This document shows, piece after piece, positions 1-33,516 of a DNA stretch of 34,932 bases. The notes under the pieces were generated by a model. The model was given only the letters and a program-made list of their open reading frames with translations. It ran no database searches and was not told the DNA's origin. Numbering within the stretch: the first letter of the stretch is position 1; the number at the start of each line of letters is the position of its first letter. A program made the translations under genes and the position numbers. The stretch is from a virus (Duplodnaviria > Heunggongvirae > Uroviricota > Caudoviricetes). The DNA is taken from IMG/VR virus record IMGVR_UViG_2718218452_000007; one strand, given 5' to 3'.

Positions 1-900
1 TTAACGCAATAATGGACAATCTGGTGGTAATCGACAACGCAACGCCGCCGGAAGTATTTCAATATGAAAGTTTTGTCCGCTCAACGGTTCGCCATCAAGA
101 TTAAAAGTGATTTCGTGTGGGGCTTGTATATCAAACCACGACGAAGCGCCTTCGATAATATTCGGGTTATCTTCGTCAGATTTTAAGGTTGATACGAGAG
201 CCGGAAGAATTTCATCGCCGGTAAAAATGCGCAGTTGCAGCAAGCCATCGTTAATTAACGCGTTCGGACACAATTGCTGACCGCCACCGGCCTGACGCCC
301 GTTACCAATACCAATGACCAGGGCGTCACCTTGCCAGTGAAAGTTTTCACCGCGGATTTCACAACGGTCCGGTTGCAGAGTATCCATGCGCATTAAGCCA
401 TGAATGATGTAAGAGACGCCACCCAGCGCGGCTTTTAATTTTTCCGGCGTTTCTGTGGTAATACGCGTCCCAAATCCGCCTGTCGCCATATTAATAAAAC
501 AGGTTTGTTTGTTGACCTGCGCCATATCTATCGCAATGGCGTTACCGGCAATTGCCAGTTTCAGCGCCTTATCCAGTGCCTCAGGAATCCCTACACTGGT
601 GGCAAAATCATTGGCGGTTCCTAATGGCAAAATTCCCAGCGCGGGTATGTCATCCCCCTCACACTGAATCAACGCCGTAGAAACTTCATTAATGGTGCCA
701 TCGCCACCACCGGCAATCACCGTTGCGACGCCCAACTTCCGGGCCTCCTCTACATATCGTGCGGCATCGCCTTTCTCCCAGGTGACCCGCACATGGATCG
801 TCATTCCTTCCTCACGCAACAGCATAATTGCTTCGCGCAAGGGTAGATTGTCAGTACTTTTGCCATTAAGAATCAGTAAGCTGGCGGGAAATTCTGCCAT
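1..900 (-). CDS. yegS: Lipid kinase YegS (DAGK/BmrU family)
   Basis: 299-aa ORF, ATG at 898-900 and TAA at 1-3; N-terminus [24 protein letters not shown] and GGDGT motif as I recall for E. coli YegS. Confidence 0.88.
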
Positions 901-1314
901 GATCGTATGTGCCTTTATGATTGGTCTGTAGATAGTGTAGAGCAGAAAACAAAAGGTGGAGTCAGAACAGGATGAAAGTCGGAGGATAAAAAGTCAGTTC
1001 AAGTATGGAGGATTCAGTGGTTACCACCAGGAGCTTGCAATGGGGACAGCGAATACTAACGGCTGCCACCGATAAATTTCAAAAAAGAGCATATGCCTAA
1101 TATTCAACCAAACAGTGGCATCTTAAATATACTATTCCAAATATATTAAAGCCCCCATGGAGTTACCCTGAAGGGCCTCAATGTCCGTAATTCCTACTTA
1201 TGTAGGAAATGTTGTACAGAACATTTATTATAATCCTATTCAATTATAATAATCATGCCATTATTATATTTAAACACTAGAGAGTGTCGTTGGTATTTAA
1301 TGGGGGAAGGTGAG

Positions 1315-1632
1315 ATGAAAAAGATAGCTGCTATATCATTAATTAGTATTTTTATTATGTCTGGTTGTGCTGTGCATAATGATGAGACAAGTATCGGTAA
1401 ATTTGGTCTTGCATATAAAAGTAATATTCAGCGTAAACTCGATAACCAATACTACACCGAAGCCGAAGCTTCTTTAGCCAGGGGCAGAATATCTGGTGCA
1501 GAAAATATAGTAAAAAATGATGCAGCCCATTTCTGTGTTACTCAGGGCAAAAAAATGCAGATAGTTGACCTGAAGACAGAAGGTGCAGGATTACATGGCG
1601 TCGCTCGTCTGACATTCAAATGTGGAGAGTGA
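1315..1632 (+). CDS. yegR: Small lipoprotein-like protein YegR (105 aa)
   Basis: Tracked ORF starts at 1255, but ATG 1315 has an AAGGTGAG Shine-Dalgarno just upstream and gives MKKIAAISLISIFIMSGC, a signal peptide with lipobox-like Cys. Confidence 0.8.
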   Translation: MKKIAAISLISIFIMSGCAVHNDETSIGKFGLAYKSNIQRKLDNQYYTEAEASLARGRISGAENIVKNDAAHFCVTQGKKMQIVDLKTEGAGLHGVARLTFKCGE

Positions 1633-1694
1633 GAATATTTTTTGGTAAGCGTCAAACATGCGCGTTCTGGTTGTGCTTAGCCGGAACCTGTGCG

Positions 1695-1727
1695 AGCACG
1701 ATGCCGTTACGTGAAAGGCATCGTGCT
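1695..1727 (+). other. 11-bp perfect inverted repeat (hairpin) between yegR and attL
   Basis: agcacgatgcc / loop gttacgtgaaa / ggcatcgtgct; no T-run follows, so not a classic intrinsic terminator. Confidence 0.35.
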
Positions 1728-1789
1728 ATGAAGGGAGATTCTATCGATGTGGTCAATGGAAGACGGTGACCAGGGATAGGGCTTATGCA

Positions 1790-1817
1790 TAAAAAATAAG
1801 CCCGTGTAAGGGAGATT
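1790..1817. repeat. attL core (28-bp direct repeat, left prophage boundary)
   Basis: taaaaaataagcccgtgtaagggagatt is identical to 33399..33426; the adjacent integrase gene reads away from it. Confidence 0.85.
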
Positions 1818-1896
1818 TAGGGTGTCACCAGTAGGGGCTTTCAACGGTACAATGCGGGTTTGAGCGGCATAAATTACCACTGAAAGCCCTTAAACG

Positions 1897-2910
1897 TTAC
1901 TCTACTGTGGACACTATGTGGACACTCTCGGCCTCAGTACCACCTCTTAGCGGATTAAGAGAAATGGCGTCCTGAAGGTACTCTGGCGCAAAATGAGCGT
2001 AAACCATAGTTTGCTCAATCCGCGTGTGACCTAGTATCCGTTGTAGCGTGATAATACTTCCTCCATTAATCATGAAATGAGTGGCAAAGCTGTGCCTTAG
2101 TGCATGTGTGGCTTGCCCCATTGGCAAATCCGGTTTTATTGCTTTCATTGTTCGTCTGAAGCGAGGGTAATCAGCATCAGGGAATAAAAAACCTCGTTTG
2201 TTATCCGCGATCATTTTGGCAACAGCCTCTGAGATCGGGACGGTGCGTGGTTTGTTTGTTTTCGTTTTAACAAACGTGACGCGGTTATGGATGATATTTT
2301 CTGCTTTCAAACGAGCTGCTTCTCCCCAACGTGCTCCAGTACTCAGGCAAAGAATCGCAATCTTTTTGTTGTCGCCGTCAAGAGCAGCAAGCAGTAAGGC
2401 AATTTCTTCCTGCGTGAGATAGCCTGTGTCTGGTTTTTCCTCCTTAAGCCTTTTTGTCCCTCTGATAGGGTGCTCACCAAAGAATAACTCCGCTTCAATC
2501 AGGGCTGTAAACATGCCGCTAATACATGTTAAATCACGATTGATACTCGAAGGTTTAATACCCTGACTTCTTCGGGTGGCGCAGTACTGGCTGATAAGCG
2601 ATTTCGTAATTTGAAATGCGCATGGGTCATTCGTTATTTTTGTGAAGATTTCAATTTTTCCAAGATTAGATTTCCCATGCTCTTCGTGTTTACCCTTTAA
2701 ATCCCACCAGATCTGTGTCAGCTCCGACAGACGTCGCTTGTCTGTTGGTTTTGATAGCCATTCTTTATTGTGGTGGTTGTACAACGTGTATTTCTCGAAA
2801 GCGACAGCTTCGCTTTTCTTATCAAACTTCCTACGGATGCGTTTTCCATTACGTCCAGTAGGGCGGATGTCCACTTCATATCGACCATCATCGAGTTTTT
2901 TGATTGCCAT
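1897..2910 (-). CDS. int: Tyrosine integrase
   Basis: 337 aa; C-terminal HxLRHxxAT and Y motifs (HALRHSFATH...MVYAHF); GGAGGG Shine-Dalgarno; next to att core. Confidence 0.93.
   Translation of the reverse strand: MAIKKLDDGRYEVDIRPTGRNGKRIRRKFDKKSEAVAFEKYTLYNHHNKEWLSKPTDKRRLSELTQIWWDLKGKHEEHGKSNLGKIEIFTKITNDPCAFQITKSLISQYCATRRSQGIKPSSINRDLTCISGMFTALIEAELFFGEHPIRGTKRLKEEKPDTGYLTQEEIALLLAALDGDNKKIAILCLSTGARWGEAARLKAENIIHNRVTFVKTKTNKPRTVPISEAVAKMIADNKRGFLFPDADYPRFRRTMKAIKPDLPMGQATHALRHSFATHFMINGGSIITLQRILGHTRIEQTMVYAHFAPEYLQDAISLNPLRGGTEAESVHIVSTVE
1906..1927 (+). promoter_or_regulatory. Putative Int arm-type binding sites (P' arm), two direct repeats
   Basis: tgtggacact at 1906-1915 and 1918-1927, overlapping the int 3' end; related repeats occur in the P arm near attR. 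Confidence 0.45.
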
Positions 2911-5479: not shown

Positions 5480-7745
5480 AGCCTCTGGGCGTTTTGTCCC
5501 TCCGTCAGCATTTGCCGCAGGCACCGGTAAGACGTTTACCGGTGCTTATGCATGGAACGCGCCACGCGAGGCTGTCGGGCGCGAAAGACCCCTTACACGT
5601 GACGAGATGCGTCAGGTGCAAGGTGTTTTATCCACGATTAATCGCCTGCCTTACTTTTTGCGCTCGCTGTTTACTTCACGCTATGACTACATCCGGCGCA
5701 ATAAAAGCCCGGTGCACGGGTTTTATTTCCTCACATCCACTTTTCAGCGTCGTTTATGGCCGCGCATTGAGCGCGTTAATCAGCGCCATGAAATGAACAC
5801 CGACGCGTCGTTGCTGTTTCTGGCAGAGCGTGACCACTATGCGCGCCTGCCTGGAATGAATGACAAGGAGCTGAAAAAGTTTGCCGCCCGTATCTCATCG
5901 CAGCTTTTCATAATGTATGAGGAACTCTGCGATGCCTGGGTGGATGCGCATGGCGAGAAAGAATCGCTGTTTACGGATGAGGCGCAGGCTCACCTGTATG
6001 GTCATGTTGCTGGCGCTGCACGTGCTTTCAATATTTCCCCGCTCTACTGGAAAAAATACCGTAAAGGGCAGATGACCACGAGGCAGGCATATTCTGCCAT
6101 TGCCCGTCTGTTTAACGATGAATGGTGGACTCATCAGCTTAAAGGCCAGCGTATGCGCTGGCATGAGGCGTTACTGATTGCTGTCGGGGAGGTCAATAAA
6201 GACCGTTCTCCTTATGCCAGTAAACATGCCATTCGTGATGTGCGTGCGCGCCGCCAGGCAAATCTGGAATTTCTTAAATCGTGTGACCTTGAAAACAGGG
6301 AAACCGGCGAGCGCATCGACCTTATCAGTAAGGTGATGGGCAGTATTTCTAATCCAGAAATTCGCCGGATGGAGCTGATGAACACCATCGCCGGTATTGA
6401 GCGTTACGCTGCCGCAGAGGGTGATGTGGGGATGTTTATCACGCTGACCGCGCCGTCAAAGTATCACCCAACACGTCAGGTCAGAAAAGGCGAAAGCAAA
6501 ACCGTCCAGCTAAATCACGGCTGGAATGATGAGGCATTTAATCCAAAGGATGCGCAGCGTTATCTCTGCCGTATCTGGAGCCTGATGCGCACGGCATTCA
6601 AGGATAATGATTTACAGGCCTACGGTTTGCGTGTTGTTGAACCACACCACGACGGAACGCCGCACTGGCATATGATGCTTTTTTGTAATCCACGCCAGCG
6701 TAACCAGATTATTGAAATCATGCGTCGCTATGCGCTCAAAGAGGATGGCGACGAAAGAGGAGCCGCGCGAAACCGTTTTCAGGCAAAACACCTTAACCGG
6801 GGCGGTGCTGCGGGATATATCGCGAAATACATCTCAAAAAACATCGATGGCTATGCACTGGATGGTCAGCTCGATAATGATACCGGTAGGCCGCTGAAAG
6901 ACACAGCTGCGGCTGTTACCGCATGGGCGTCAACGTGGCGCATTCCGCAATTTAAAACGGTTGGTCTGCCGACAATGGGGGCTTACCGTGAACTACGCAA
7001 ATTGCCTCGTGGCGTCAGCATTGCTGATGAGTTTGACGAGCGCGTCGAGGCTGCACGCGCCGCTGCAGACAGTGGTGATTTTGCGTTGTATATCAGCGCG
7101 CAGGGCGGGGCAAATGTCCCGCGCGATTGTCAGACTGTCAGGGTCGCCCGTAGCCCGTCGGATGACGTTAACGAGTACGAGGAAGAAGTCGAGAGAGTGG
7201 TCGGCATTTACGCGCCGCATCTCGGCGCGCGTCATATTCATATCACCAGAACGACGGACTGGCGCATTGTTCCGAAAGTGCCGGTCGTTGAGCCTTTGAC
7301 TTTAAAAAGCGGCATCGCCGCGCCTCGGAGTCCTGTCAATAACTGTGGAAAGCTCACCGGTAGTGATGCTTCGTTACCGGCTCCCACACCTTCTGAGCAC
7401 GCTGCAGCAGTGCTAAATCTGGTTGATGACGGTGTTATCGAATGGAATGACCCGGAGGTCGTGAGGGCGCTCAGGGGAGCATTAAAACACGGTCTGAAAA
7501 CACCAAATCGTCAGCAAAGAAACGGAAGTCCGTTAAAAACACATGAAATTGCACCGTCGGCCAGACTGACCCGGTCGGAACGAATGCAAATCACCCGTAT
7601 CCGCGTTGACCTTGTTCAGAATGGTATCAGGCCTCAGCGATGGGAGCTTGAGGCGCTGGCGCGTGGGGCAACCGTAAATTACGACGGGAAAAAATTCACG
7701 TATCCGGTCGCTGATGAGTGGCCGGGATTCTCGTTATCCATTTGA
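5469..7745 (+). CDS. A: Replication initiation endonuclease A (rolling-circle nickase)
   Basis: Long ORF with HUH-like HWHMM motif and active-site tyrosine pair (GYIAKYISKNIDGY). Start is uncertain: ATG 5469, or in-frame TTG 5460 or ATG 5427. Confidence 0.88.
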   Translation: MAVKASGRFVPPSAFAAGTGKTFTGAYAWNAPREAVGRERPLTRDEMRQVQGVLSTINRLPYFLRSLFTSRYDYIRRNKSPVHGFYFLTSTFQRRLWPRIERVNQRHEMNTDASLLFLAERDHYARLPGMNDKELKKFAARISSQLFIMYEELCDAWVDAHGEKESLFTDEAQAHLYGHVAGAARAFNISPLYWKKYRKGQMTTRQAYSAIARLFNDEWWTHQLKGQRMRWHEALLIAVGEVNKDRSPYASKHAIRDVRARRQANLEFLKSCDLENRETGERIDLISKVMGSISNPEIRRMELMNTIAGIERYAAAEGDVGMFITLTAPSKYHPTRQVRKGESKTVQLNHGWNDEAFNPKDAQRYLCRIWSLMRTAFKDNDLQAYGLRVVEPHHDGTPHWHMMLFCNPRQRNQIIEIMRRYALKEDGDERGAARNRFQAKHLNRGGAAGYIAKYISKNIDGYALDGQLDNDTGRPLKDTAAAVTAWASTWRIPQFKTVGLPTMGAYRELRKLPRGVSIADEFDERVEAARAAADSGDFALYISAQGGANVPRDCQTVRVARSPSDDVNEYEEEVERVVGIYAPHLGARHIHITRTTDWRIVPKVPVVEPLTLKSGIAAPRSPVNNCGKLTGSDASLPAPTPSEHAAAVLNLVDDGVIEWNDPEVVRALRGALKHGLKTPNRQQRNGSPLKTHEIAPSARLTRSERMQITRIRVDLVQNGIRPQRWELEALARGATVNYDGKKFTYPVADEWPGFSLSI
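7320..7339 (+). other. Probable replication origin (A-protein nick region) inside gene A
   Basis: gcgcctcggagtcctgtcaa matches the P2 ori nick region as I recall it, in the 3' part of A. Confidence 0.45.
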
Positions 7746-8277
7746 GTAAAAACACAACTAATTTGGTATGCAGAGCGACTCTAAGGCAGAAGAAGGTCAA
7801 TAGTATACTGAAATAGAAGACTAAATTATATTGAATCGTTAGCATGTAATTTAACTCAAATATAAAAGAGCATCTAATTTGGCTAAGAAAATCATTGTGA
7901 GTGACCTTCTGTCGAAGTATAACTCATCGTGAGCCAAGTAATAAAAATAATCAGTTAATGTTTCAAAAATCACAGGGTGGGTGCTTCTTGTGTCAAGCGG
8001 ATTAATTCTCATGTGTCATAGATGCTTATTTTGTCTGATGGCGGTGTTATTCACTAATATGGCCATGAGGTTTCGGGAAAATCCTGGGGGGTTAATGCAT
8101 GGTATAAGAAAACAAAATCATCAGTAAAGAAGATAGTTCCTTGAAATAGAGTAAGATGTTGTGACTGGCGTGCAAAGAGAGTGTAAGCCCTCTGATGAAA
8201 AATCATTTATTTTGTTATGGGTATGTAGGTTCTATTTTGTAATTTATACCCCCACTTATAAACGCAGGGGTAGGAGA

Positions 8278-8544
8278 TTATTTTCTGTTGAGTTTATTGA
8301 TGAACAATAATACTACTGATACAAAAATAGCGGAAAAAATATAATAAATGGTTTCTGTATAGCCACCTAGATTAAGATGTTTTATTATCTTGGTAATACC
8401 TGAGTTTTCAAAGAGTGGTTTCGTTATCACAGGTGAGAGAGATGTTGAGGCAACTAAGCCAAACGTTATAGTAATATTCCTGTTGCTTATTTCGTTTTTG
8501 CTTGCATCTTTTAGTTTTATAACTTGCATTCTTGATTTTAACAT
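8278..8544 (-). CDS. Small protein with C-terminal transmembrane anchor (88 aa), second gene of cargo operon
   Basis: ORF 31 nt downstream of the 438-aa gene; hydrophobic IYYIFSAIFVSVVLLFI then basic tail; AT-rich; weak Shine-Dalgarno. Alternative start at Met6. Confidence 0.55.
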   Translation of the reverse strand: MLKSRMQVIKLKDASKNEISNRNITITFGLVASTSLSPVITKPLFENSGITKIIKHLNLGGYTETIYYIFSAIFVSVVLLFINKLNRK

Positions 8545-8575
8545 TTTGGCAAGGTTCTTTCGAGCCAGTTCTAAA

Positions 8576-9892
8576 TCATTTGACTGGACGTTGTTGGATA
8601 TAATGTTTTGTATTTCTCCATATTTTTTTTGAAAAGACTCTTAACCATTCCTCAAATTGAATGATTTCCTCTTGGGTTGTGGCTAGGCCAATATGGTTGT
8701 TCTCATTCTTGACTTGTTCTATTTTGGATTCGTAAAAAAAAGATATAAAATCTCTCAGGTCACTTTTTACTTGGTTGTCCCATATGATATTTGATTCGGA
8801 ATACGAATCTGTGATGTTTTTAAATTCTACTTTTTTTGAACATAGTGTGAGGGTTGCTCCTTGCTCTGAATAATAATTAAAGTCATTAAATACTCTGAGG
8901 TCGATGTGATTTTGCTTGTCTTTTTCATCATTAAAAAAAGTGCTCTTGCTTAATAGTGAAGATATTAATTGTTTGTTGTATTTACTATTTTTATTGGCGT
9001 TGCTTTTTTGGTTGTCATGGCTAAAAATATAAATATTAGGTTTCCCTTGCCATCCATGGTAGAAGTCTGTTGTTTTTCTGCCAAATAAAATATCTTTTAG
9101 TGTTTTTTTTCTTAATGTGTTGTGAATTATTGCTATTGTGGTGCGAGCGATATCGCTTAAGCTATTTTGTAGTTCAAATTCTTTTGCGTAGTTAATATAT
9201 TTTCCATTGATTGTTAAGTTGTCGCAAGATATATCTCTTGATTTTACTTCCACCTGTTTGATTTGTGTTGACAATAATCTCTTGGCTATAACTCGCTGGA
9301 CCAAATTCATTGGTGATAAGTCAAGCTCAATGACTCTGTTTGTATACTCCGTACTGGCAATGATTGAACTGCTGGCATTAAAAGGGAGATTTATTTTTGT
9401 GTCAATGAAATAATTTAATTCATTATCATAACGTTCTTCGTCGATGAAAGTTATATGGGATATGCCATTTCGATATAGGCGTATTATTGGAATTAAGAAA
9501 AACTCATTTTCTCCGCAACCAAATAAAATGGGTTTTTGACAACAAATAATGTTGTTGTAATATGATTGCTCTGTGATATGGAATAGTTTGTTTTCTGATA
9601 GTCTCAAGTTGATACAATTGTAGAATGAATGGATTGTTAAATCGCATAAGCCGGGAGAGTTTAAAAAATTAGCATCACCCAAATTGACGCTAACTCCATT
9701 ATTCTCGTATTTCATTGATAACTTTGTTGATAACACATTACAGCCTGAAAGACACTTAAAAGTGTTATCAGGGGTTAAAATCGCCAAAAACATACCTGTT
9801 TTGATTAATTGCGATGCAGTTTCCTCCGCATTGTCATATGTTGGTGACTGGGTTGTGTAAGTATGCCAGACTGTTCCTTTTTTGATCTGCAT
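8576..9892 (-). CDS. Hypothetical 438-aa protein, first gene of cargo operon at the P2 tin/old position
   Basis: Long clean ORF in very AT-rich DNA with AGGA Shine-Dalgarno 6-7 nt upstream; N/K/I/Y-rich; no Walker A, so not an Old-type ATPase; no family recognised. Confidence 0.75.
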   Translation of the reverse strand: MQIKKGTVWHTYTTQSPTYDNAEETASQLIKTGMFLAILTPDNTFKCLSGCNVLSTKLSMKYENNGVSVNLGDANFLNSPGLCDLTIHSFYNCINLRLSENKLFHITEQSYYNNIICCQKPILFGCGENEFFLIPIIRLYRNGISHITFIDEERYDNELNYFIDTKINLPFNASSSIIASTEYTNRVIELDLSPMNLVQRVIAKRLLSTQIKQVEVKSRDISCDNLTINGKYINYAKEFELQNSLSDIARTTIAIIHNTLRKKTLKDILFGRKTTDFYHGWQGKPNIYIFSHDNQKSNANKNSKYNKQLISSLLSKSTFFNDEKDKQNHIDLRVFNDFNYYSEQGATLTLCSKKVEFKNITDSYSESNIIWDNQVKSDLRDFISFFYESKIEQVKNENNHIGLATTQEEIIQFEEWLRVFSKKIWRNTKHYIQQRPVK

Positions 9893-10057
9893 GTTTTTCC
9901 TTCTGGATTTTTCTAGAACACAATTCTCAATATTGTATGGTTACGTTGCATGATAATGCATTTGTTTCAAAATATCTTTTTGATGAGCTTCAGGTAGTGT
10001 TGGTGCGGGTTAAAGATAGTGATTCAACTGCATTCAAACTGCCCCATGAAGCGGGCG

Positions 10058-10076
10058 GGCGAGGCGGGGAAAGCAC
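10058..10076 (+). other. cos site (19-nt cohesive end sequence)
   Basis: ggcgaggcggggaaagcac, the P2 cohesive-end sequence as recalled, in a GC-rich tract next to Q. Confidence 0.7.
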
Positions 10077-10218
10077 TGCGCGCTGGCGGTGGTGCTGATT
10101 TTATTTTTTCAGCGTCTCAGCGCGTCGTGACGGCGTTTGGATTGTGCGCCGGGGCGTTGGTGTGTCTGCGGGGTGTTTTGTGCGGTGGTGAGCGTGTGAG
10201 GGCGTGATGACGGGGTGT

Positions 10219-22792: not shown

Positions 22793-25024
22793 ATGAGCAC
22801 AAAATTCAGAACCGTTATCACCACTGCTGGTGCAGCAAAGCTGGCAGCGGCAACCGCGCCGGGAGGGCGGAAGGTCAACATTACCACGATGGCCGTCGGG
22901 GATGGCGGTGGTAAATTGCCTGTCCCGGATGCCGGACAGACCGGGCTTATCCACGAAGTCTGGCGACATGCGCTGAACAAAATCAGCCAGGACAAACGAA
23001 ACAGTAATTATATTATCGCAGAGCTGGTTATTCCGCCGGAGGTGGGCGGTTTCTGGATGCGTGAGCTTGGCCTGTACGATGATGCTGGAACGTTAATTGC
23101 CGTGGCGAACATGGCTGAAAGTTATAAGCCAGCTCTTGCCGAAGGCTCAGGGCGTTCGCAGACCTGCCGCATGGTCATCATCGTCAGCAGTGTGGCCTCA
23201 GTGGCGCTGACCATTGACACCACAACGGTGATGGCAACGCAGGATTACGTTGATGACAAAATTGCAGAACATGAACAGTCACGACGTCACCCGGACGCCT
23301 CGCTGACCGCCAAAGGTTTTACTCAGTTAAGCAGTGCGACCAACAGCACGTCTGAAACACTCGCCGCAACACCAAAAGCGGTAAAAGCAGCATATGACCT
23401 TGCTAACGGGAAATACACTGCACAGGACGCCACCACAGCGCGAAAAGGCCTTGTCCAGCTCAGTAGTGCCACCAACAGCACGTCTGAAACGCTCGCCGCA
23501 ACACCAAAAGCGGTAAAAGCAGCATATGACCTTGCTAACGGGAAATACACTGCACAGGACGCCACCACCGCGCGAAAAGGCCTTGTCCAGCTCAGTAGCG
23601 CCACCAACAGCGATTCTGAAACGCTTGCGGCAACGCCAAAGGCGGTTAAGACAGCGTATGACCTTGCTAACGGGAAATACACTGCACAGGATGCCACCAC
23701 AGCGCGAAAAGGTCTTGTCCAGCTCAGTAGCGCCACCAACAGTGATTCTGAAACGCTGGCTGCAACACCAAAAGCGGTGAAGTCTGCCTATGACAATGCT
23801 GAAAAACGTCTTCAGAAAGATCAGAACGGCGCGGATATTCCTGATAAAGATCGCTTCCTGAGTAACATTAATGTTTACAGCAAAGGCGAGGTGGATAAGA
23901 AAAAAGGAATGCGGCTGTACGTATTTAACGCGCCGTCTAATGCTGTTGGTGGAAAGTGGTATCCAGTTATTTTCCGGCGTTCCACTGGTAGCACTGGCGA
24001 ACTGGCTTCCAGAGTGGTTATTACAACCACATCTGCCGGTGGTGATTACGCAATGAATAACTGCGAATTTAATGGAATGGTAATGCCCGGAGGTTGGACT
24101 GATCGTGGTTCATATGCAGCAGGTTATTTTTCGACATATCAGACTAATGAGCGCGCAATCCATTCCATTGTAACAAGCCTGAAAGAAGATGATGTATGCA
24201 GCGTTTTTTACGTTGAAGGCAGGGCTTTTCCTGTGCGAGTTTTTGCCGAAGAAGGGCTAACGGTTATTGTTCCAACTCAGGATTATACCGTCGGTCAAAC
24301 AACATATAAGTGGGGAGCAACTAATCCCGCGACAGAAAGCACGAACGCACAAGCCATTCTGGATTTTAACAATGGGCGAGGGTTTTATTGTTCTCACTCA
24401 ATATTCGGTATTAATGCCATTTTTAGCGGAAATCTGGGGATTGGAACGGCTAATGCCCTGGGTGGAAATTCAATAGTTTTAGGAGATAACGATACCGGGT
24501 TTAAACAAAATGGTGATGGGGTGCTGGATGCTTATGCTAATGGTGTGCATGTATTCCGCTTTATAAATGGTTCAGCAAGATCATTAAAGGGTATTCAGGC
24601 TGGGGAAAGTAAGTTCTTCACACTTTCAAGTGCAAATACCGCTGCCCGTAATGCATCATTTAACTTGTGGGGAAATTCGTCAAGACCAACTGTTGCAGAG
24701 CTTGGTGATGATTCAGGCTGGCATTTCTATAGTCAGCGAAATACAGATAACTCGGTGATATTTGCTGTAAACGGTCAGATACAACCAAGCAACTGGGATA
24801 ACATTGATTCCCGATATGTGAAAGATGTTCGGCTTGGCTCACAGCAATATTATGGTGTGAACAACTGGCAAACATGGAACTTTCAGTGCCCTTCAGGTCA
24901 TGTATTGTCTGGTATAAATGTTCAGGATACAGGTTCCAACTCCGCCGATAATATTGCGGGTGTTTATTACAGACCCGTTCAAAAGTATATAAATGGCACA
25001 TGGTATAATGTAGCGAGCGTTTAA
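22793..25024 (+). CDS. H: Tail fiber protein H (N-terminus P2-like, repeats, divergent distal domain)
   Basis: 743 aa; conserved N-terminus [20 protein letters not shown]; four 44-aa tandem repeats; AT-richer C-terminal half. Confidence 0.9.
23326..23810 (+). repeat. Tandem 132-bp repeat (about 3.7 copies) inside H
   Basis: caacagcacg recurs at 23341 and 23473; encodes LSSATNS(T/D)[12 protein letters not shown](A/T/S)[23 protein letters not shown] x4; generates spurious ORFs on both strands. Confidence 0.85.
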
Positions 25025-33081: not shown

Positions 33082-33300
33082 ATGTTTCATTGTCCTTTAT
33101 GCCAGCATGCCGCACATGCGCGTACAAGTCGCTATATCACTGACACGACAAAAGAGCGTTATCACCAGTGTCAGAACGTGAATTGCAGCGCCACGTTCAT
33201 CACTTATGAGTCGGTACAGCGATACATCGTGAAGCCGGGAGAAGTCCACGCCGTGAGGCCGCACCCGTTGCCGTCAGGGCAGCAAATTATGTGGATGTGA
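33082..33300 (+). CDS. ogr: Late gene activator Ogr (zinc-finger)
   Basis: 72 aa from ATG 33082 with CPLC...CQNVNC zinc finger; tracked ORF starts 21 codons earlier. Confidence 0.9.
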   Translation: MFHCPLCQHAAHARTSRYITDTTKERYHQCQNVNCSATFITYESVQRYIVKPGEVHAVRPHPLPSGQQIMWM

Positions 33301-33336: not shown

Positions 33337-33339
33337 TCG

Positions 33340-33359
33340 ATGTGGTCAATGTGTGGACG
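33340..33359 (+). promoter_or_regulatory. Putative Int arm-type binding sites (P arm)
   Basis: atgtggtca and gtgtggacg, related to the tgtggaca repeats at 1906-1927. Confidence 0.4.
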
Positions 33360-33398
33360 TGACCAGAAATAAATCCTTTTATTTCATTGTATTACGCG

Positions 33399-33426
33399 TA
33401 AAAAATAAGCCCGTGTAAGGGAGATT
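33399..33426. repeat. attR core (28-bp direct repeat, right prophage boundary)
   Basis: Identical to 1790..1817; lies within the 3' end of cyaR. Confidence 0.85.
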
Positions 33427-33486
33427 ACACAGGCTAAGGAGGTGGTTCCTGGTACAGCTAGCATTTTATGGGTTATGTTTTTCAGC
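33400..33486 (-). ncRNA. cyaR: Hfq-dependent small RNA CyaR (RyeE)
   Basis: Minus-strand sequence GCUGAAAAACAUAACCC...CCUCCUUAGCC...CUUAUUUUUU matches CyaR as recalled; terminal hairpin plus U-run; TATCAT -10 at -13..-8. Confidence 0.8.
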
Positions 33487-33516
33487 GAAACGGATGATAA
33501 CCTTAATAAATGCAGC

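Follow-up and report, generated by a model that had tools for sequence, protein, structure and literature searches.

Prophages of the P2 type have the order attL-int-C-cox-B-A-(cargo)-cos-Q...D-ogr-attR, and cryptic or "grounded" prophages in general are elements whose mobility genes have been deleted and that are passed on vertically with their att ends and an accessory gene still in place. Barreiro and Haggard-Ljungquist are said to have reported in 1992 that E. coli K-12 carries a remnant of P2, comprising ogrK and yegZ/D′, at the cyaR site, and MG1655 coordinate 2165238 is taken here to fall in the cyaR/ogrK region. The same coordinate corresponds to the integration site of P2 in E. coli C, where it is a preferred site (PMC3448106 Table 1). 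Use of the cyaR 3′ end by P2 is documented in other strains as well: E. coli W has a P2-like prophage there, E. coli B a defective P2, and K-12 an "ogr-D′" remnant (PMC3032704 Table 2). In P2-like phages the main cargo hotspot is between gpA and gpQ, beside cos (PMC13586616), and the arm-type sites bound by P2-type Int have the consensus tgTGGaCa (PMC3448106).

The DNA analyzed here (below, "the window"; 34,932 nucleotides in all) begins with the host gene yegS and carries at the 3′ end of cyaR a resident P2-type prophage that is 96.9% identical to P2 across 83% of the first 24 kb (Table 1). The cargo region of the resident prophage, from gene A to cos (~7750–10057), contains a minus-strand ORF of 438 aa (8576–9892) that may be a defence or other accessory gene. 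A preliminary description of the window proposed that the host side of attL is the scar of an older P2-like element. An eroded P arm is indeed present there, but the scar appears to be both larger and older than was proposed, about 800 bp long and with yegR inside it: the P-arm-like segment is, in our judgment, probably the right end of a fossil P2-like prophage (window ~988–1790) that is fixed in E. coli. The interval is an insertion relative to other species, three phage-derived pieces of it are homologous to phage DNA, and these pieces have prophage-like order and orientation.

Eroded prophages are a known class, and the cyaR fossil is a further example of it. It shares with the K-12 remnant the locus, the att core and the type of object, an internally deleted P2-type prophage that keeps its right end; the K-12 remnant, however, is younger, has recognizable genes and an intact P arm, and is located to the right of the segment studied here, whereas in the relic, which occurs in essentially all E. 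coli and includes yegR, erosion has gone much further and no phage genes are left. Like cryptic or "grounded" prophages and domesticated cargo, the relic has lost its mobility genes and has kept an accessory gene and att ends, but it is an extreme case in having zero phage coding sequence and an attR core that is still the primary site for living relatives. The arm similarity itself may already be described in the older literature on P2 attachment sites.

Table 1. Features of the window, with position, strand and the basis on which each was assigned.
Feature	Position	Strand	Basis
yegS (lipid kinase), conserved host gene, left anchor for comparison across species	1–900	−	ORF; yegS annotation in homologous E. 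coli records
Ancestral bacterial arm (upstream spacer of yegS), which in other species leads directly into the cyaR terminator	901–987		Shared with Escherichia sp. E1V33 and E. whittamii up to ~981–992
Degenerate old att core (core*), probable left junction of fossil element	988–1014	+	Position of 27-bp core in empty-site species
Degenerate P′ arm (P′*; int-proximal) of probable fossil element	1015–1085	+	Colinear with P2 and resident P′ arm after core
AT-rich interior of relic, upstream of yegR	1086–1314		Missing in empty-site species
yegR, 105-aa orphan predicted lipoprotein inside relic	1315–1632	+	RefSeq annotation YegR
Host-side arm, 158 bp	1633–1790		Between yegR and core
Homologue of right-end (cosR) flank of P2/186-like phage genome	1636–1694, looser similarity to ~1743	+	Alignment to phage 186
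Predicted relic of P-arm Int arm-type binding region	1744–1773	+	Repeat of 33337–33366
Rest of old P arm, counterpart of IHF site	1774–1790	+	Diverged, 16 nt shorter than phage
27-bp att core: resident attL core; in unoccupied strains attB and 3′ end of cyaR	1791–1817	+	Identical to 33400–33426 and to P2 attP core
Resident P2-type prophage	1818–33399	+	96.9% identity to P2
int of resident prophage	1897–2910	−	ORF
cos of resident prophage	10058–10076		Exact 19-nt P2 cos sequence
ogr of resident prophage	33082–33300		ORF
Resident P arm with Int footprint	33337–33364		Match to P2 record
attR core of resident prophage	33400–33426	+	Copy of 1791–1817
cyaR small RNA gene, terminator overlapping att core	33403–33488	−	Rfam RF00112, 100.7 bits, E = 3.4e-19
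yegQ	Right of cyaR		Order of features in the window

The P-arm repeat on the host side of attL

The repeat of the phage P arm that the preliminary description placed at 1744–1773 (against 33337–33366) is present there and consists of two identical blocks, 1744–1758 = 33337–33351 (15/15 bases) and 1766–1773 = 33359–33366 (8/8), between which seven bases have been replaced (GAAGACG on the host side, TGTGGAC in the phage), so that 23 of the 30 bases are identical. Both copies are to the left of identical 27-bp cores, the host-side copy at a distance of 17 nt and the phage copy at 33 nt, which makes the host side 16 nt shorter. Local alignment of the whole host arm with the P2 P arm gave a score of 22, where dinucleotide-shuffled sequences gave a mean of 8.1 and a standard deviation of 1.4 (z = 10.3), and none of 2000 shuffles scored as high. 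Chance similarity, which has only the short length of the match in its favor, is negligibly probable in view of this score and of the fact that a 15-mer and an 8-mer occur in the same order and orientation as in the phage and at approximately the same distance from the core.

In the P2 record AF063097 the sequence tcgatgtggtcaatgtgtggacgtgacc is annotated as an "Int, P arm" protein-binding feature (24293–24320, 28 bases), and the counterpart of the annotated P2 IHF feature (24324–24357) has diverged and become shorter on the host side. The host segment thus resembles the P arm of P2 attP in having a recognizable 28-bp Int footprint to the left of the same core, and the host-side arm abuts that core directly; it differs in being preceded by a cos flank rather than by ogr and a terminator, and in being outside a functional attP. 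The first arm repeat (aTGTGGTCA, 1747–1755) is intact in the host-side copy and the second is lost (TGTGGAC in the phage, GAAGAC in the host), which leaves one of the two repeats of a P2-type P arm. As judged by alignment, no IHF site of the P2 type is retained in the diverged and shortened stretch. Further substitutions are found within 1744–1773 in the K-12 and Shigella copies.

Canonical tyrosine-integrase attB sites are not known to require arm sites. A function for the retained Int arm-type site, in aiding the assembly of P2 Int on attB or attL or in affecting excision, could nonetheless be argued from the intact first repeat, the 23 of 30 bases shared with the phage and the preference of P2 for this site (PMC3448106). 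We consider such a function quite unlikely, because one repeat is destroyed, the IHF region is gone, the 16-nt loss changes the spacing and helical phase relative to the core, additional substitutions have accumulated in K-12 and Shigella, and part of the arm is lost in a divergent Escherichia lineage labelled E. coli SCPM-O-B-8794 (L022; yegS 87% identical). For these same reasons we regard segment 1744–1773 as a non-functional fossil, and its sequence has the pattern that would be expected from neutral decay.

The preliminary description also pointed to a "core-like" fragment, aagggagatt, at 1730–1739. The fragment is present, but its similarity is at chance level (430 of 2000 shuffles match the P2 att region equally well or better) and it falls within sequence loosely aligned to the cos-proximal right end of 186/P2, and it was discarded as a candidate for the old core. 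The real old core and P′ arm are at 988–1085, ~800 bp upstream of this fragment.

Occurrence of the interval in E. coli and its absence from other species

The interval from yegR through the arm to the core (1255–1817, ≥80% coverage) is present in 5385 of 5426 complete E. coli genomes, arm plus core are present in 5402 (~99%), and in none of the 5426 is yegS directly adjacent to cyaR; the relic is species-wide and fixed in E. coli. A P2-type attL junction was found in 816 genomes (15%), and the other ~85% have no P2-type attL at the site. Strain Z1323CEC0015 exemplifies the empty site, in which yegR, an arm with the same segment, the core and cyaR follow one another. Given these counts and its presence at the empty site, the segment is the normal context of the site rather than a mark of this strain's own integration history. 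Its occurrence in strains without P2 at the site is an observation that the preliminary description had held against a scar. The scar idea nevertheless stands, with the scar now predating the species, because the whole interval, yegR included, is missing from E. whittamii, from Escherichia sp. E1V33 and from several genera besides Escherichia.

The preliminary description also likened the scar to the ogrK/yegZ remnant of K-12, but K-12 has both. Its order is yegR, the same arm with the segment, core bases 1–18, D′, ogrK, a terminator, an intact P arm, the full core and cyaR (GenBank entry "Phage TP", AY639599, has the same arrangement), so that the younger remnant is nested to the right of the same arm. 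Since a degenerate segment is to the left of D′-ogrK and a second, intact P arm is to the right of it, the K-12 remnant is a separate, later and nested event and not the source of the segment; it is a later prophage at the same core that was deleted from inside the attL core into gene D. The hallmarks of the K-12 remnant are ogr and a 3′ fragment of gene D, and neither is in window 1633–1790. It could be supposed that a remnant of the K-12 type (D′-ogrK-P arm) decayed in the window strain and that the present prophage then entered a strain-level scar, as ogrK and a piece of D do lie between yegR and cyaR in K-12 and the segment does resemble a P arm. The two arms of K-12, one degenerate and one intact, on either side of D′-ogrK, and the finding of the segment in empty-site strains and ~99% of genomes make this very improbable. 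The left end of the K-12 remnant (2536–2560 of the K-12 locus) is a fusion of core bases 1–18 to gene D codons, so the deletion began within the core; a break inside the att core could be Int-related or due to chance.

For comparison with other species we scanned one genome per species for loci in which the body of cyaR is beside the core, which gave 25 loci. The scan used an exact 26-mer, by which E. fergusonii, Salmonella and Citrobacter were unmatched, and was made in 8-kb blocks, which in E. albertii and E. ruysiae end short of the left junction. In seven representatives (Escherichia sp. E1V33, E. whittamii, two Kluyvera, Kosakonia oryzendophytica, Enterobacter sp. EA-1 and Silvania hatchlandensis) the site is empty; the start codon of yegS is ~90 bp from the cyaR core, and yegR and the arm are absent. 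The identity of yegS to that of the window is 85–87% in other Escherichia species and ~70–73% in other genera. Homology between the window and these outgroups covers yegS and the spacer upstream of it and ends at ~981–992, at the start of the core A-run. Relative to the outgroups E. coli thus has an insert of ~800 bp (window 988–1790), as a prophage remnant should.

The outgroups also bear on the direction of transfer. Temperate phages can take flanking DNA and similarity as such gives no direction, and it might be proposed that the host arm is original and was captured by a P2 ancestor through aberrant excision, the phage P arm then being host-derived. We give this proposal very little credence: related species are without the whole interval, the P′ arm has two more copies of the tgTGGaCa repeat, which many P2-like phages that use other sites also carry (PMC3448106), and capture would leave the cos-flank homologue and the P′-like arm of the interval unexplained.

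Erosion of the relic is still under way and is lineage-dependent. An AT-rich stretch of ~170 bp between yegR and the cos flank is found in 948 of the 5426 genomes and, in a diverged form, in L022; it is at 1884–2056 of the Z1323CEC0015 locus, its insertion point is between window positions 1639 and 1640, and it is absent from the window strain and K-12. Since the 948 genomes and L022 have kept it, the window strain and K-12 must have lost it by deletion. One phage record annotates a hypothetical ORF of 41 aa within this stretch. In strain FDAARGOS_1077 most of yegR has been deleted exactly between 12-bp direct repeats, TCTGGTTGTGCT, that are located in the window at 1360–1371 (the lipobox region of yegR) and 1666–1677 (the cos-flank homologue), and yegR is therefore dispensable in at least one strain. 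The P arm remnant has decayed differently in different lineages, E. coli having kept the Int-site part and L022 the IHF-site part, with the Int-site part lost.

Phage homologies inside the interval

Beyond ~981–992 the window is colinear with P2 core and P′ and not with cyaR. The window sequence ATAAAAAGTCAGTTCAAGTATGGAGGATT followed directly by CAGTG-GTTACCACCAGGAGCTTGCAATGG aligns to P2 core ATAAAAAATAAGCCCGTGTAAGGGAGATT followed directly by P′ arm TAGGGTGTCACCAGTAGGGGCTTTCAACGG, and directly after the core CAGTG-GTTACCACCAGGAGCTTGCAATGG and TAGGGTGTCACCAGTAGGGGCTTTCAACGG have 21 matches in 30 columns (binomial probability at this fixed position, 3e-6). When core* and P′* are aligned together to P2 core plus P′, z is 8.9 and none of 2000 shuffles does as well, while the controls gave z values of 0.8 (reverse complement) and 1.0 (core plus cyaR), and nowhere else in the 35-kb window, the two real att sites aside, is P2 core plus P′ matched as well as at 988–1085. 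A free local search with P′ alone gave a modest result (z = 3.1, 29 of 2000 shuffles). By manual count, core* agrees with the outgroup core in 17 of 29 columns in the window and in 20 of 29 in L022, and the identity of core* and P′* overall is ~60–70%. The att site is thus duplicated as in a prophage, with P′ inside the left end and P inside the right end, the left copy being degenerate. Core* and P′* are too degenerate to be detected by database search; blastn of phage records with window 980–1320 returned one record that contains host flank, and otherwise noise. The possibility that 1015–1130 is a degenerate duplicate of cyaR was ruled out (z = 0.0 to 1.0).

Farther to the right, 1636–1694 aligns to the last 200 nt of phage 186 with a score of 28, compared with 8.6 ± 1.3 for shuffled sequences (z = 14.6, 0/2000). 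The L022 version of this region aligns to the 186 right end with z = 25.5 and reaches the base before the cos cleavage point, and blastn with the L022 interval from yegR to the core matches the extreme right end of phage 186 and other P2-family phages (E = 6e-8); across the 19-nt cos itself the match of L022 to P2 is weak (z = 4.5). The right end of 186 scores 28 at two places only in the window, both on the plus strand, namely the resident cos flank (9951–10100) and the relic (1551–1750). P4-like satellites, which likewise have a cos of the P2 type with a cargo hotspot next to it, were considered as a source too; all database matches to the relic cos flank are P2-family (Peduoviridae) phages, and the att arms of the relic are P2-type. 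The interior of the relic therefore includes a piece of phage origin that is on the plus strand and in its proper prophage position between attL* and the P arm, and the elements of the relic, from attL* through yegR, the cos right flank and the P arm to the core, are all on the plus strand and follow one another as do those of the resident prophage, from attL through int, cos (at 10058) and ogr to attR.

No remnant of a phage protein was found in the relic when 370 ORFs of the resident prophage were compared by tblastn with three versions of it (the matches were noise only); the relic thus has no recognizable phage genes or pseudogenes, and remnants of int were likewise not found by tblastn. 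A scan for terminators in window 900–1900 found none. Two stable hairpins are predicted at 1660–1727 within the cos-flank homologue (MFE −43.4 kcal/mol for 1625–1745, z = −3.5); they have no trailing T-run and may be a former packaging-site structure or a 3′ structure of yegR.

Homologues of YegR are nearly confined to E. coli and Shigella, and yegR is absent at this locus in E. whittamii, Escherichia sp. E1V33, Kluyvera, Kosakonia and Silvania. The gene is directly before the relic cos flank, which matches the position of the cargo hotspot in P2-like phages, and from its position we infer that yegR was cargo of the old phage. In tblastn searches of phage records YegR homologues were found only in records that contain host flank, and the contexts of distant homologues are unrelated chromosomal or IS-flanked regions with no P2-like prophage. 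In Enterobacter sp. BIDMC 29 a 51%-identical homologue (6001–6318 of that locus) is located beside an MFS transporter gene and is bracketed by IS/transposase genes, a context that indicates that the yegR family moves horizontally by non-phage routes too. A Pfam search of YegR gave no significant match in the local copy, and a database table lists PF27694 "YegR" for the protein. YegR also matches phrog_21109 (1.3e-71), probably owing to prophage calls that took in host flank. A search of the literature on yegR returned mostly unrelated papers.

A narrower reading would limit the phage-derived DNA to 1636–1790, i.e., to the cos flank and P arm, with the yegR region and 988–1085 being an unrelated insertion or a chance resemblance. 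The degeneracy of core* and P′* (~60–70% identity), the modest result with P′ alone, the absence of phage homologues of yegR and the IS-flanked homologue in Enterobacter sp. BIDMC 29 all fit it. We consider it unlikely, however, since the outgroup breakpoint is at the start of the core and the next 30 columns match P′, and since in the absence of an attL a separate explanation would be needed for ~800 bp placed exactly between the yegS spacer and the core.

A possible history of the site

A fossil P2-like prophage that spans the whole insert could have arisen as follows. A phage of the P2 family, whose att arms were P2-type and whose cos flank was 186-like, would have integrated at the 3′ end of cyaR, beside yegS, in an ancestor of E. 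coli. A first large internal deletion would then have removed roughly int through A, and a second would have removed the left-end sequence beyond cos, Q through ogr, so that only the attL, by then in decay (core* plus P′*), was left along with yegR, the right-end flank of cos and the P arm. The right core would have been kept intact by selection as the cyaR terminator and would now serve as the primary attB for present-day P2, and integration of the resident prophage at this surviving core would have given an attL that is flanked by the old P arm.

The divergent lineage L022 complicates the dating of these events. It carries yegR and a separately decayed old core, ATAAACCGTCAGTCTGCATAAGAGAGATT, and it keeps a less eroded version of the 1774–1790 part of the P arm, gcgtaaccagaaacaaatcttttaattcaattggttacgtat. 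It is about as distant from E. coli, however, as are E. whittamii and Escherichia sp. E1V33, which do not have the relic, and the history of the relic therefore needs either an origin further back, followed by loss, or transfer from one lineage to another. L022 and E. coli share no homology at the junction of cos and P arm, and the L022 P arm could be from a separate, later phage.

A more speculative possibility, about which we are doubtful, is that the primary P2 attB of E. coli is itself phage-made, in that its 27/27 core would be the attR core of an ancestral P2-like lysogen whose own sequence replaced the descending half of the cyaR terminator and which donated yegR. The core is of the CCTGCG type in E. 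whittamii, Escherichia sp. E1V33 and E. albertii and of the P2-type, CCCGTG, in E. coli. Had the core of the old phage ended up in attR, the old attL of L022 would be expected to show the T and C that mark the CCTGCG type, and both are kept there. Against this possibility, CCCGTG is also the type at empty sites in Kluyvera, L022 now has a mixed core (CCTGTG), and the core beside the P-arm-like remnant of E. albertii is CCTGCG. If attB is phage-made, the site preference of present-day P2 in E. coli would be the legacy of an earlier lysogeny.

On the reading that we prefer, of a fossil prophage at cyaR, the "host" arm of attB and attL at the classic P2 site would be old phage DNA, and the uncharacterized, E. 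coli-restricted yegR gains a plausible origin as phage cargo. In the K-12 and window lineages combined, a single sRNA terminator would have been struck by P2-type phages at least three times, as witnessed by the fossil, the ogrK remnant and the resident prophage. Two questions become testable at this locus: whether an attachment site can be improved by an earlier lysogen for its relatives, and how complete the erosion of a prophage can become with cargo and att core still in place. There is also a consequence for annotation, as prophage-boundary calls and phage databases already take yegS and yegR as phage genes; in GenBank ON470606, the "partial genome" of Escherichia phage vB_EcoM-720R8, host yegS and yegR are annotated as such, and phrog_21109 is probably another case.

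The cyaR terminator is an integration hotspot across the Enterobacteriaceae, and a simple yegS-cyaR arrangement was seen in only ~7 of the 25 species representatives. Ends of P2-like prophages with different P arms are present at the cyaR sites of Kluyvera intermedia and E. ruysiae, an IS and a P-arm remnant are present at that of E. albertii, and the remaining representatives have other elements beside the core. In Enterobacter hormaechei B17-3 and B56 (so labelled) the yegQ/cyaR side is 98% identical to E. coli and yegS is ~70% identical, a mismatch that suggests either transfer or recombination at the hotspot or an assembly or labelling problem.
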